Shown one piece after another: positions 6,001-15,000 of a DNA stretch of 47,863 nucleotides. The position numbers are program-made. The stretch comes from an uncultured bacterium. GTDB taxonomy: Bacteria > Hydrogenedentota > Hydrogenedentia > Hydrogenedentales > JAEUWI01. The stretch is from contig CAXBPH010000011.1 in assembly GCA_963977445.1 (NCBI GenBank), positions 1 through 47,863 on the forward strand. The letters run 5' to 3'. How positions within the stretch are numbered: the first letter of the stretch is position 1; each line of letters starts with the position of its first letter.

Positions 6001-9000
6001 GCTGATATAGCCATGGGTATACTACTCCTAAATTAATTTTCTGAAATCGTGGTGAATTACTCGGCGGGTTCTACTGCAGGCGCTTCGGCAGGTGCTTCGG
6101 CAGCGACAGCAGGTGCTTCGACAGCGACAGCAACTTCTTCGCCGGCGTCATCTGCGTCCGATTTGGCCTTAGCGGCCTTCTTGTCGGATTCATCCGCACG
6201 AATCTTTTCAGCGCGCATCTTGCCTTCCAATACGGCGTCGGCGATTACCTTGCAAAAGAGGTCAATTGCGCGGATCGCGTCGTCATTACCGGGAATGGCA
6301 AGATCGACGGCATCGGGATCACAGTTGGTGTCGACAATACCGATGCTGGGGATGCCAAGACGCTTCGCTTCACGAACTGCGATGTGTTCGCGCTTGGCGT
6401 CAGCGATAAATACGACACTGGGAAGTCCGGGCATCTTCTGGATGCCGAGCAAGTTCTTTTCGAGCTTCGCACGACGCTTCCGGAACACAACGCCTTCTTT
6501 TTTGCTGTAGCGTTCGATTTTGCCCGTGGTTTCCAGTTCCTGGAGATTGTTCAGCTCCTGGATGCTGCCGCGAACGGTCTGGAAGTTGGTCAACGTGCCG
6601 CCGAGCCAGCGATTGTGAACATAATACTGTCCGCAACGGTTGGCCTGCTGGGCGATGGGTTCCTGTGCCTGCTTCTTGGTGCCTACGAAAAGAACGCTGC
6701 CGCCATTGGCAACCGTCTCGCGGACCAGCGCATAGGCTTTATATACCTGGCGCAGGGTAATCTGGAGGTCGATAATGTAGATGCCGTTACGCTGTCCGAA
6801 GATATAGGGTTTCATCTTGGGGTGCCAGCGACGGGTCTGGTGACCGAAGTGGATGCCAGCTTCAAGGAGCTCGCGCATAGAAACGATAGCCATTCTTTAT
6901 TCTCCGTTCGGGTTGGTTCCTTGAGTCCCCTCATGCAGCCTGAATCGATGTCGATCAGACACCCGAATTACGCACGAATTCAGGGGACTCTGTGAAGTTA
7001 AAATCGCGGAAGGATAGCATAGGAAGGGCCGGTGTGACAACTTTTTTGCCCCATATCCCGGATATCAAGGGCGTCGAATCACCCAGGATGTAAGATTTTA
7101 CGATGGATTCGCACGGATTTACGGGTGGCTCCGGTTTGGGACGGTTGCTTTGCGGCAGGTGGAGCGCATGATAAAGTAGCCGAAGGTCGTCATCCTCGTG
7201 GGCGGGCTGTCGATTTAGTGTGCGGGGTACGAATAAGGCCTACCCACCTGTATTTAGCACCCGCAACGTCATTCTCGCGCAGGGGGGGCTTCCAAAAATA
7301 ACGTGAGTAGTTAAGGCGACCGTATTGGATTGAAGCGTACGGTGGGGTGCCACGGACAAGCCCGCCAGGGTTTGCCCGTGCTGGGACGGGAAGGCTACCC
7401 AACCTCGCTAGTGAATTAAATGGTGGCTTGCGTATTGAATAAAGGATTCATATGCAATGCTCCGTTCACCAAAATGAGCACGGGCAAGCCCTGAGGGCTT
7501 GTCCGTGGCACCCAATAATTCCCGATATGTCAACGGGTACGCCGGCAATGACAACGTCTTGTGAATTGCCTTGTTGAAAGTTGCCGCCCTTTTTGGAAGA
7601 CCCCCTTCGCGGAGATGACGGCAACGTGCTTTCATTCCGTGCGTTAGGTGCCGTTGAGTAAATCTACAGCCCCGCGGTCGGGCATAGAGTTGCGGGCATA
7701 CCATTATTTATATCGGTCTATCGATAGCGCCCGTATTTGGGGGATAAATTTGATTCCTGCGGTGTATTCTGGCAAAGTATAGCCGTTCAACCCGCCGTGA
7801 CTGGCGAGCTCGGACGTGGATTCAACCACGGTGGAGCGGCGGGGCTATTTTATAATGCAGCATGCCGTTCGCCTGGGCGCTCTAAGCTTTTTGGTATCAA
7901 CTATTTATAACACCAACAGGCTTCGCGTCGCTTGTTTTAGATACAGGCGATTGCGCCGCCCGGAGGCTCCGCAATGCGGCAGACCCCACTACGAAGCGCC
8001 TACGACGCCCAGGGTGCCAAAGTCGTCGATTTCCACGGCTGGGCCCTTCCTGTCCAGTTCGCCGGAATAATTCAGGAACATCAGCACGCCCGCGCGAAGG
8101 CCGGACTCTTCGATTGCTCCCACATGGGCGAGTTCCTGCTCCGTGGCCCCGAAGCGGCGCAAGCCCTCGATCGACTGGTTTTCAGTGACATGCTCAGTCT
8201 GCGGATTGGTTTGTGCCGATACAGTGCCATTCTCAATGATCAGGGTGGCATTATCGATGATTGTGTGGCCCTCCGACTTTCCGATGACTTGCTCTACCTG
8301 GTGACCAACGCTGGCCCCCTTGATGAGGTTGATTCCTTGCTCGCGGGAACGCCCGGTGTTGAGAATATCAGTGATGCTACCGCCAAAATCGACCTGCAAG
8401 GCCCCCTGGCACGGGATATCATGCTCGCTTCCGGCTTTGAATCGGTGCGGGATATGAAATACTGGAACGGTGCCCAGGTAAACTGGGAAGGCCACGAAAT
8501 CGTGGTTACCCGCGCGGGTTATACCGGCGAAGTCGGTTATGAAATTTTTGTTCCCAATGCTGCGGCGATACCCTTATGGGAGCGCCTCGTGGCCCATGAA
8601 GACGTGGCCCCCTGTGGACTCGGTGCCCGGGATACACTCCGCACCGAGGTCGGTTATCCCCTCAACGGGGAAGATCTCGGCCCAAACAAGACACCCCTCG
8701 AATCAGGAATGGCCCATCTTATCAAGTGGGACAAGGAATTTGTGGGCAAATCGGCCCTTGAGGCGCAGCGCGATCGGGGAGACTACACCGTGTTGGTGGC
8801 CATTCAATCCCCCGACCGACGTGCACCCCGCCATGGGTTTGAAATCAAACACGATGGTGAAGTGGTTGGCCACGTGACCAGTGGCACCTTCGGTCCGAGC
8901 GTTGGTTGCGGTGTTGGCTTGGCCGACCTGCCCCAGGCCCTGTCGGAGCCGGGAATTGCCCTGACGGCCGGGCCTCGTGATATGGCGATTTCAACCGCCC

Positions 9001-12000: not shown

Positions 12001-15000
12001 AGGAAATCAGCCGGAACGCCGTGCTTCACGCAAACTACATCTATGCGCGCCTCAAGGGCACCTACAAATCCGCCTTCCCGGGCAACTATATGCATGAATG
12101 CATCTTCACGGCAACGCCCCAGGCGGCCACGGGGGTCCATGCCATCGACATCGCAAAATCCCTGCTGGACCGGGGCTTTCATGCGCCGACCATCTATTTC
12201 CCGCTGACCGTAAAAGAGTGCATCATGATCGAGCCCACGGAGACGGAATCCAAGGAAACGCTGGATGCCTTCTGCGATGCCATGCTGGAAATTGCCAAAG
12301 TCGCTGCAGAAAATCCCGATGCCCTCCATGCTGCGCCGGAAACTACCCCCGTGGGTCGGCTTGACGAAGTGCGGGCGGCGAGAGATTTGAACTGCGCCTG
12401 CCTCTGATGCGCCTTGTTGACCATAGTTTTGCCGATCCCGGTGAAAACCTCGCCCTTGAAGAAATTTTGCTGGACGAGGTAGAGCAGGGGCGGCAACCGG
12501 AAACCCTTCGGTTCTGGGAGAGTGCCCAGCCCTTTGTGGTGCTCGGTACGGGTCAGGTGTTGGCGCAGGAAGTGGCGGAAGCCCACTGTGCGGAAGATGG
12601 TGTTCCAGTTCTGCGCCGGTGTACCGCTGGGGGATGTGTCCTCCAAGGGCCGGGTTCGCTGAATTATTCCCTTTTTCTAAGCTATGAGCAGACCCCCGAT
12701 GTGGCGACGTTGCATGGCTCCTATCGCTATATCATGGGGGCTATGTGCGACGCATTGGGGACCCTGGGTATCGTTGCGACCCATGAAGGCGTGTCCGATA
12801 TGGCCGTTGGTGGACGAAAGGTCTCGGGAAATGCCCAGCGACGGCGTCGTCGGGCGCTGCTGCATCACGGGACGCTTCTCTACGATGCACGTTTGAAGGC
12901 CATGGCCCGGTATCTTCGTGAGCCCGCGGATCGGCCGGCCTACCGGGATACCCGTAGTCATGAGGCTTTTGTAACTACACTCGAAGCCACGCCAGAGGCC
13001 CTTCGCGTTGCCGTGATTAATGCGTTGGCGCCCACGGCCAGTCGAGATGACATAACCGAAGCAGAAATGGGGCGTGCACAAGCGCTGGCATTGGAAAAAT
13101 ACAATACCAGGGCCTGGACCTATCGTCGTTGACCTGTGCAAATCTGGAACCATTACACTATTCATGCAAATCTCCGTCGATTGACGAATTGACACCCTGT
13201 TTGCTACCATAACTACGTGAGTAATATGACTAATAGTCGACCTCGGCGCTTTCTTATGGCCTTATTTGCAGGCGCGATCCTTGGAGCCGTTGTTGGTTCT
13301 GTCATAAAATATGGATTGGCGGGAGGCTTCGCCTCTGTGCCCTCGACCCGCGTGGAGCAGGAAGCTTCCGGCGGTGGTGGTGACGTTGAACACGGTGACG
13401 AAAGTATTGCCTGGCAATATGTTTTGGCCTATCAGGAGGGAAACTGGTCGCGGGTGGTCGAATTGACTGTCTGGATGAACGACCGGTTGGCCTTTGTTGC
13501 CCAATCAGGCACGCCGGCGGATGTAGATGCTGCCCGTGATGGGATAATCGAACAGATCAGTACCCATGCGATGTCAGAAAATTATCTGCGTGATGAAGGG
13601 GTAGACGACCAGTATTTATTTACACCCGGCACACGATTAGAATATATTGGAGAAGATGGGGGTAGCGATACGCTGGAAGCGCCCATCGCGAGACGCACCT
13701 GGTTCAGGGTAATTTATCCAACGCGTGAAAAAGCGCTGTTGGACAAGGAAGGTATACCGATTCGTTCGGTAAATGCCGGCGTTAATGTGTCCTCAGACGG
13801 ACGTGTGCTCAAAGCAGGCGTCGTTGGCAATATGAACATCGATTGGGATTCCATTCGCTATGATTGGCCCTCCCAATAAGGAGAATTTCCATGCCCTTGG
13901 CAAGCTGTGTCCGCTGTAACAAGATGTTCACCAAGGTTTCTTCGCCTGTATGTCGCAACTGTCAGGAAGAAGAAGATGCCGACTTCGAAAAAATTCATGA
14001 AGTAATTTCCAAAGACGAAACGCTGAACGTGAAGCAGGTTGCCGAAGCGTCTGGTGTGGATGTGGCCGTCGTCCGTCGTATGGTCGAAGAAGGCCTTGTC
14101 GCCCAGGTTACGCTGGGGGATACGTCCGTCGTCTGTGGACAATGCGGAGCGCCGGCAATCAGCATGAGTAAGAAACTTTGTCAGGCTTGTCTGGATAAAC
14201 TCAATGTACAAGTATCCAAGGCCCAGGCACAGATAAAGCTTACAAAGAAGCAGGATGTGCAGATTGGTGAATATAATAATGCACGTGAAGCCTTCCAGGC
14301 GAAGCGTAAATAAACGGCACCCTGATGCAGACCCGGTTGTATTTCGGCGCGCTGTTTGTGGTGTTTTCGAATTCCCCTCAATGAGGTCGGGAACTTAACT
14401 GAGCAGGCTGACATTACATGACTAATAGAGACAAGACGGGACTCGCCATTCTTATCGGTTTGTTTGCTGCGTTGGCACTGGCCCTCTTCCTAACGATGGA
14501 TCGTCCATCAAGCAGCACCGGGAGTTTCGAAAATAATGTCCTCATCGACCAGCGGGTCCGCAACCTCAACAAGACGCCTTGATTTGAAGGCGACAGTGAT
14601 TCGATCCCGCTTCTGTCTGTTCTGTTTTCTGTGCCTGCTCCCGCTCATCGTGGTGAGTAGCGTTGCATTTAGCGACGACACGAATATTGATGTGCTCCGC
14701 CACGGTGTCACCACACCGCTGGTCCTGCCGGAATACAAAAGCCAGGGAGTTGGCTATGCGTCCATGCGCGATGTCGCTCGCCAGATCAATGGTGTCGTTT
14801 CCGTAGATGCTGCCCGCGTTACCTTTCGCCTTGACGGGGTATCGGCCAACGCAGGGCTGAATGACACCGGCGTCGAGAGCGGCACGGGTGCGTTCGCCCT
14901 GACCCATCCCATACTCGCCTACGAAGGGGATGCGCTCATTGCCATGGATGATGTCGTACCCTTCCTTCGCAACGGCTTTGGTTTCGGCACACCCGATGCC

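Follow-up and report, generated by a model that had tools for sequence, protein, structure and literature searches.

In other bacteria, the genes for glycine cleavage are often preceded by a glycine sensor. The window analysed here, a stretch of 47,863 nucleotides from an uncultured member of the class Hydrogenedentia, carries a ZMP/ZTP aptamer in front of such an operon, an RNA reportedly validated as a riboswitch by Kim in 2015. Why would glycine cleavage be coupled to ZTP, in which direction, and at which step of gene expression? From sequence, we consider it likely that the RNA is an ON switch controlling the gcv operon, which would induce glycine cleavage as a one-carbon supply when 10-formyl-THF is short.

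The aptamer and the operon in the window

A cmscan search of the whole window returned RF01750 as the sole Rfam match at gathering score (Table 1) and found no glycine riboswitch (RF00504). The RF01750 match scores 56.5 bits against a cut-off of 39 (E = 1.2e-6) and covers model positions 1-86 of 86. P1/P2 is present with ACUGGCG in J1/2, P3 is present with CGCCUG in L3, and the two are complementary across the pseudoknot. The aptamer occupies the same-strand leader of a one-carbon gene, 88 nt before gcvT, in agreement with a preliminary description that had placed a ZTP riboswitch directly upstream of gcvT-gcvH-gcvPA-gcvPB.

The glycine cleavage system is complete, with the T, H, PA and PB proteins encoded at the locus and two lpdA genes over cut-off elsewhere in the genome. 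The preliminary description closed the operon at 12407; it runs at least one gene further, into a lipoate-ligase-like gene whose start overlaps the gcvPB stop. Of the 14 further operons retrieved, 4 likewise have such a gene next after gcvPB, and here it is probably the operon's fifth member. No promoter-like site was seen upstream on the forward strand. The gcvPA reading frame opens at 9616, and its family match begins at residue 26.

Table 1. Features of the riboswitch and glycine cleavage locus.
Feature	Position	Strand	Basis or remark
ZMP/ZTP aptamer (RF01750)	7787..7885	+	cmscan alignment
Aptamer P1/P2	~7789-7846	+	RF01750 alignment; linker then P3
Aptamer P3	7864-7878; loop L3 7867-7875	+	RF01750 alignment
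Aptamer pseudoknot	GGCG 7803-7806 with CGCC 7870-7873	+	RF01750 alignment
Two leader hairpins	7884-7923; 7924-7955	+	Folding; between P3 and ribosome-binding site
Putative invader and ribosome-binding site	7953..7976	+	7953-7963 pairable with L3/P3 3′ strand
Shine-Dalgarno GGAGG	7962-7966	+	gcvT start ATG at 7974
gcvT, aminomethyltransferase (T protein), 358 aa	7974..9050	+	NF001567, TIGR00528 over curated cut-off
gcvH, H protein	9178..9564	+	NCBIfam GcvH over curated cut-off; likelier start ATG 9181
gcvPA, glycine dehydrogenase subunit 1	9694..10977	+	NF001696 over curated cut-off
gcvPB, glycine dehydrogenase subunit 2	10968..12407	+	NF003346 over curated cut-off
Lipoate-protein-ligase-like (lplA-like) gene	12407..13132	+	TIGR00545 136 bits, below cut-off 280

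Distribution of the switch in Hydrogenedentia

The RF01750 aptamer occurs in 121 of 133 class genomes, and in 79 of the 84 of high quality. Among the 150 matches listed out of 155, the next gene is gcvT in 105 and purH-like in 41, with a contig end in 4; none of the 150 precedes glyA, folD alone, fhs or pfl. Three matches outside those listed also precede gcvT. The aptamer stands directly before gcvT in 108 of the 121 gcvT-bearing class genomes, the 108 representing 9 of 13 families and, among the listed matches, 50 genera. The earlier view of gcvT as the class-wide main use of the switch therefore stands insofar as gcvT is the commonest target; the ratio of 18 gcvT to 2 purH-like loci on which it drew overstated gcvT, the whole-class count being 108 to 45. 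The second large target is the purH-like genes, with the aptamer before them in 45 genomes, from 8 of 13 families and, among the listed matches, 26 genera.

The window's own genome contains a long-linker aptamer before purH that Rfam misses. The idea that many purH-linked copies are hidden in this way was largely rejected, as only three long-linker copies were found. No aptamer was detected in 20 further purH leaders, one of them just 146 nt long, with about 56 such leaders outside this count.

On its intact consensus and covarying P1, the aptamer before gcvT is genuine. All 105 gcvT-linked copies keep ACTGGCG and GTGG..CCAC, and ACTGGCG is accompanied by CGCCTGGG in every one; the GCC/GGC form of P3 is found in 102, and 9 of 19 P1 pairs have compensatory changes on both sides across the 50 genera. 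Each of the 105 lies on the same strand as gcvT, 31-227 nt before its start (median 75 nt). Loss of the aptamer from several lineages would suit a relic or a free-standing RNA that does not control gcv, an explanation rendered very improbable by this constant placement and by an invariant core maintained alongside compensatory P1 changes.

Examination of the gcvT leaders showed 11 class genomes with no switch at the cut-off, and a quick tree scatters these unswitched genes within one clade. The pairing with gcvT probably arose a single time, close to the root of the class, with several losses thereafter. Two genomes previously described as the deepest members without the switch indeed have no RF01750 match; both fall outside the class, in the phylum only. 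A narrow pattern scan, which catches 83 of the 105 class loci and is blind to operons that begin with gcvH, gcvP or lipA and to long spacers, did not find the pairing outside the class: 80 of 84 genome matches were listed, 14 of the 80 were non-class, 13 of these 14 lacked gcvT, and 10 of the 14 were run through Rfam. One non-class locus that has gcvT (L240) was rejected as a pairing, having no RF01750 match and a P3-like word that is apparently the end of a coding gene, which we take to be panC. Among pattern matches from metagenomes, RF01750 was found in 0 of 12.

No glycine riboswitch exceeds the cut-off in the class (RF00504, 0 of 133 genomes). A glycine-sensing protein may regulate the gcv operon. 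The single weak RF00504 match in the class adjoins trp-like genes.

Leader sequences and the mode of control

Class-wide, a terminator motif overlapping P3 is found in 26 of 41 purH leaders versus 1 of 105 gcvT leaders, and a hairpin-plus-U scan identified terminator-like sites in 12 of 41 versus 4 of 105. No terminator-like site was found on the forward strand of the window between 6900 and 13300, and the copy there is thus not of the terminator type. We propose a translational step for gcvT, in which L3/P3 would pair with the Shine-Dalgarno region when ligand is lacking and would be unable to do so when ligand is bound, raising translation. The mode of action of the gcvT copies is probably translational, on mixed evidence, and we lean slightly towards ligand-driven release of the Shine-Dalgarno as the means.

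The predicted duplex of the window's putative invader with L3/P3 has an energy of -16.2 kcal/mol, and 2.3% of 2398 start regions of its own genome reach a value that low. Opening the gcvT start costs 11.4 kcal/mol with P3 and 8.7 kcal/mol without it, the region remaining in a local hairpin even in the latter case. Across the class, GGAGG is followed by C at 46 of 53 gcvT sites, versus 0 of 14 for gcvH, 0 of 12 for purH and 67 of 283 in the background. The L3/P3 duplex is stronger for gcvT than for gcvH start regions in 60 of 75, L3/P3 complementarity exceeds a scrambled query for gcvT in 35 of 50 genera (gcvH, 17 of 40; purH, 8 of 26), and P3 raises the site-opening cost beyond a shuffled P3 in 76 of 105 leaders (median 1.4 versus 0.5 kcal/mol), counts whose significance is overstated because the class genomes are kin and not independent. 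The opening-cost signal is modest and patchy, and no pairing register exceeds a mean probability of 0.13. L3 is invariant, so covariation is uninformative on invader pairing. Excess L3/P3 complementarity is also seen in 7 of 8 scored gcvT genes that have no switch, and the signal may therefore be inherited start-region sequence.

An ON switch could instead act on transcription, by Rho-dependent termination, a pause or some non-canonical terminator, or on mRNA stability, and not by masking the ribosome-binding site. This would accommodate a ribosome-binding-site signal that is missing in four of nine families (f7, f8, f9 and f10) yet present in unswitched genes, the one or two strong hairpins in gcvT leaders and the few terminator-like sites among them; translational control of gcvT alone would, moreover, affect the downstream genes by polarity only. 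We nevertheless find such a mechanism doubtful, given how rarely the P3-overlapping terminator accompanies gcvT when purH leaders of the same class so often have it, and given that GGAGGC enrichment is specific to gcvT.

Opening costs also bear on the direction of control. Passages of one report predict OFF-type ZTP switches elsewhere (moeA; PMC9481103), and an OFF switch here would let high ZTP damp glycine cleavage, sparing glycine or freeing THF, or would shut off reverse glycine synthesis, which consumes methylene-THF, in one-carbon shortage. In line with an OFF switch, P3 makes opening easier, by over 1 kcal/mol, in 10 of 105 leaders; in 58 of them it makes opening harder, again by over 1 kcal/mol. 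We regard OFF control as improbable.

One-carbon supply and known ZTP switches

Glycine cleavage yields 5,10-methylene-THF, which FolD oxidises to 10-formyl-THF. According to published passages, a shortage of 10-formyl-THF stalls AICAR formylation, and ZMP/ZTP accumulates (PMC7266159, PMC9481103). Under ON control, such a rise would allow ZMP to lock the J1/2-L3 pseudoknot of the gcvT aptamer, as its intact consensus suggests, and so favour gcvT translation. The T, H, P and L proteins, the genes for which are present together with the FolD route, would then restore 10-formyl-THF. The second aptamer copy in the class, in most cases accompanied by a terminator, would serve a purH-like AICAR transformylase. 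We tentatively put forward, as a finely balanced possibility, a class-restricted and unreported regulon with two arms, gained once close to the root of the class: a terminator-type arm on a stand-alone, purH-like AICAR transformylase and a translation-type gcvT-H-PA-PB arm, joined by folD in one genus.

RF01750 (pfl motif) switches are known before purH, fhs, pfl, glyA as well as folD (Weinberg 2010, PMC2864571), and the class switch shares with them the aptamer and would share the signal and the logic of raising 10-formyl-THF supply. Their standard P3-overlapping terminator also occurs on the class purH copies, whereas the gcvT copies are without it, and the main target here is a glycine cleavage operon, unnamed in the passages of PMC2864571. 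In passages of PMC11754884, Pectobacterium carotovorum rhtB has a translational ZTP riboswitch with the ON control by a P3-displacing invader that we propose for gcvT; invasion there begins at the start codon, as tested, whereas the gcvT candidate is the Shine-Dalgarno flank, in a register that varies among lineages. The C. difficile gcv operon is described in part of PMC11477304 as controlled by RF00504. Such operons encode the same enzymes, and their first gene likewise has a riboswitch in its leader, but their input is substrate excess (glycine) and that of the gcvT switch would be product shortage (ZTP). In Bacillus and Oceanobacillus, a gene for serine synthesis is preceded by tandem ZTP/glycine riboswitches, according to passages of PMC9481103 that also note one-carbon units from glycine cleavage. 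These riboswitches too link ZTP to serine/glycine one-carbon supply, with two aptamers and serine synthesis in place of a single ZTP aptamer before gcv.

The pairing of a ZTP switch with gcv was not found in the literature passages searched, a set that does not take in the Kim 2015 and Weinberg 2010 gene lists. We regard it as a known switch in new wiring, its novelty in print unproven; the ZTP regulon would gain gcv, with no new RNA class or chemistry. Glycine cleavage under ZTP control would be a supply route for 10-formyl-THF, as opposed to the known response to glycine excess. If this is true, the whole class wires glycine cleavage to a ZTP alarm, driven by demand and not by glycine, and glycine cleavage becomes a rate-setting, folate-stress-induced one-carbon source in lineages mostly without fhs, revealing how purine synthesis is supplied in a group that is widespread and little studied. 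As natural candidates for translation-type ZTP platforms, the gcvT leaders number more than 100, and the same genomes also hold terminator-type copies.

Gene content is consistent with this role. fhs occurs in just 45 of 133 class genomes, and in none from the family of the window genome or that of genus g27; neither fhs nor pfl was found in the window genome. In all 9 of the gcvT-linked g27 genomes, coordinates place folD about 4.6 kb past the aptamer and on its strand, and the order gcvT-H-PA-PB-folD was found in 3 of 3 g27 operons fetched. The position of folD after gcvPB, together with a window genome without fhs and pfl, supports the ON logic of formyl-THF supply. Both observations weigh against OFF control, as does the textbook purine pathway, where the AICAR step, and hence its block, comes after glycine incorporation; glycine is nonetheless a purine precursor, and the fhs-bearing genomes have a gene required for the reductive glycine route from formate, which would fit an OFF switch. 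folD is present in 124 of 133 class genomes. glyA is present in 121 of 133, and the notion of a class without it was rejected.

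ZTP aptamers before gcvT and purH in the class

The window contains a single Rfam match at gathering score, a ZMP/ZTP aptamer (RF01750) that is a genuine member of this known riboswitch class. As the preliminary description had stated, it stands directly before gcvT-gcvH-gcvPA-gcvPB. An open reading frame (ORF) of 220 aa follows lplA, and a similar-looking ORF also lies behind lplA at loci L327 and L330.

Features in the window and in loci named in the text
Feature	Position	Strand	Remarks
ZMP/ZTP aptamer (RF01750)	7787-7885	+	56.5 bits against a cut-off of 39; whole model
gcvT	start 7974		passes NCBIfam cut-off
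gcvH, gcvPA, gcvPB	3′ of gcvT, in that order		pass NCBIfam cut-offs
Lipoate-ligase-like gene	overlaps gcvPB stop; end 13132		NCBIfam match below cut-off
220-aa ORF	13217-13879	+	behind lplA; no NCBIfam match
Second ZTP aptamer of the window's genome	G000:C79:3733-3510 (L269)	minus	before purH-like gene; below Rfam cut-off
purH-like gene, example	L146:440-1555		372 aa
SHMT, example from the window's genome	G000:C160:14983-15639		
890-aa ORF outside the class	L169:2796-5468 (G134)		N-terminal GcvT
Aptamer close to gcvT start	L161:156-245 (G039)		

Of the 133 class genomes, 121 carry RF01750, as do 79 among the 84 of high quality; both phylum members lying outside the class lack it. All 150 listed matches, of 155 in all, were read for the downstream gene: 105 precede gcvT, 41 a 372-aa purH-like gene and 4 a contig end, with none among them before glyA, fhs, pfl or folD alone. 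Four of the five matches beyond those listed could be assigned to a target, three to gcvT and one to purH; with these and the long-linker purH copies missed by Rfam, the targets come to 108 gcvT and 45 purH. The earlier claim that gcvT is the switch's main use in the class thus holds by genomes (108:45) and, among the listed matches, by genera (50 versus 26), and is weaker by families (9 versus 8 of 13). A glycine riboswitch, absent from the five genomes tested for the preliminary description, scores over cut-off in 0 of 133 class genomes.

gcvT itself occurs in 120 class genomes (E 1e-40), or 121 with one partial gene, and 108 of these 121 carry the switch at cut-off before it. Among the 13 others, contig ends truncate two genes, one leader reaches 29.9 bits, two leaders appear degenerate on visual inspection and the remaining eight have no aptamer trace. 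Degenerate remnants precede gcvT at L159, L170 and L166 (genomes G130, G127 and G116), where the purH-linked copy is intact, and read as aptamer loss in progress. At L324 and L325 (G073 and G002), the purH- and gcvT-linked aptamers share a contig and are divergent, at distances of 3 and 7 kb; at L323 (G081), an aptamer precedes an internally shortened gcvT followed by gcvH, with no gcvP behind.

The purH-like protein matches the transformylase part of PurH only, below cut-off, and its gene is found in 121 of 133 class genomes. In the window's genome, about 100 nt of conserved hairpins separate stems P1 and P3 of the second aptamer, which the Rfam search therefore missed. A pattern search recovered the same architecture in two congeners (L265 and L266; 75–100 nt across the three). 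These copies score 31–36 bits, so standard annotation overlooks them, and they lie inside the known range, as the Weinberg 2010 consensus permits a linker of 2–121 nt (PMC2864571). Inspection of 20 further purH leaders found no aptamer.

Conservation, descent and distribution

The gcvT-linked aptamer is under selection. The motifs ACTGGCG and GTGG..CCAC occur in all 105 gcvT-linked aptamers and the P3 stem in 102. An alignment of one sequence per genus (50 genera) recovers the fold already described for ZTP aptamers; 9 of its 19 pairs have changed on both sides, almost all of them within P1. A quick phylogeny of GcvT took in 66 rows: for each genus having a full-length copy a single switched gene, all the unswitched genes, and three outgroups. 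In it the 62 class proteins group as a single clade (SH-aLRT 98). Because unswitched genes are scattered inside this clade, forcing at least five changes, one gain and several losses would be the simplest reading.

We scanned 185,579 genomes for the consensus of P3 and its loop, L3, followed 106–166 nt further by the GcvT N-terminal motif, a pattern that recovers 83 of 105 class loci and is blind to operons headed by other genes. Among the 80 listed of 84 matches, 66 are class loci and 14 non-class, and none of the latter pairs the aptamer with gcvT. A metagenome scan with a variant motif gave 12 matches, RF01750 in none. Within the limits of these two scans, the pairing therefore looks class-restricted. 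Outside the class, the 890-aa ORF of G134 heads gcvH-gcvPA-gcvPB with no riboswitch and is probably a GcvT-SHMT fusion, its SHMT part putative.

The class-wide gcvT context was not found in print, nor was any publication joining Hydrogenedent- with riboswitch. The literature searches listed no paper on a ZTP switch before gcv; the gene-context lists of Kim 2015 and Weinberg 2010 lie beyond their reach and may hold gcv as a minor context. Published cases include ZTP and glycine switches arranged in tandem ahead of a gene for serine synthesis, together with predicted OFF-type ZTP switches (PMC9481103), and an experimentally tested translational ZTP switch (PMC11754884); the literature considered also comprised PMC7266159, PMC13273304, PMC7337938, PMC9943018 and PMC11477304.

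Candidate expression platform

A standard terminator invading P3 occurs in 26 of 41 purH leaders by motif (12 by a stricter scan) and in 1 of 105 gcvT leaders (4 by the stricter scan); none was found in the window. A C follows GGAGG at 46 of 53 gcvT sites, against 67 of 283 background sites (gcvH 0/14, purH 0/12), yielding AGGC, able to pair with GCCU of L3. Pairing of the L3/P3 strand is stronger with the gcvT than the gcvH start region in 60 of 75 loci, and for gcvT it exceeds the pairing of scrambled queries in 35 of the 50 genera, as it does in 17 of 40 for gcvH and 8 of 26 for purH. In 76 of 105 leaders the native P3 adds more to the site-opening cost than its shuffled version does (median 1.4 versus 0.5 kcal/mol; 2.8 versus 1.2 in the window), these pairing and cost counts coming from kin loci that are not independent. 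The platform signal is absent in families f7–f10, no single pairing register dominates, the window's start region is predicted to sit in a hairpin even without P3, and 7 of the 8 scored gcvT genes that lack a switch have this excess pairing too (one of nine was dropped, its start not found). On these models, translational ON control of gcvT by Shine-Dalgarno sequestration is slightly favoured, and ON control of any kind appears likely.

At L161, 5 nt separate the end of the aptamer from the gcvT start, so that the Shine-Dalgarno sequence and the 3′ strand of P3 overlap. This is a platform different from that of other gcvT leaders, and the switch possibly acts there with the opposite sign.

Proposed link to formyl-THF supply

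Glycine cleavage gives methylene-THF, which FolD converts to 10-formyl-THF. folD is found in 124 of 133 class genomes, glyA in 121 and fhs in 45, with no fhs in the family of the window's genome; that genome (94% complete) has lpdA, and pfl was not found in it. By coordinates, all nine gcvT-linked genomes of genus g27 have folD on the aptamer's strand, about 4.6 kb behind it, and the three fetched loci (L320, L321 and L322) share the order aptamer-gcvT-H-PA-PB-folD with gaps below 100 nt. There, folD apparently belongs to the same operon as gcvPB, under the ZTP aptamer. Since folD is already a published ZTP riboswitch target (PMC2864571), this placement gives the strongest independent indication of a gcv operon serving formyl-THF supply. 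The class SHMT appears to be of a long or divergent type, its Pfam match starting only around position 110 and its frames reaching about 510 aa or more.
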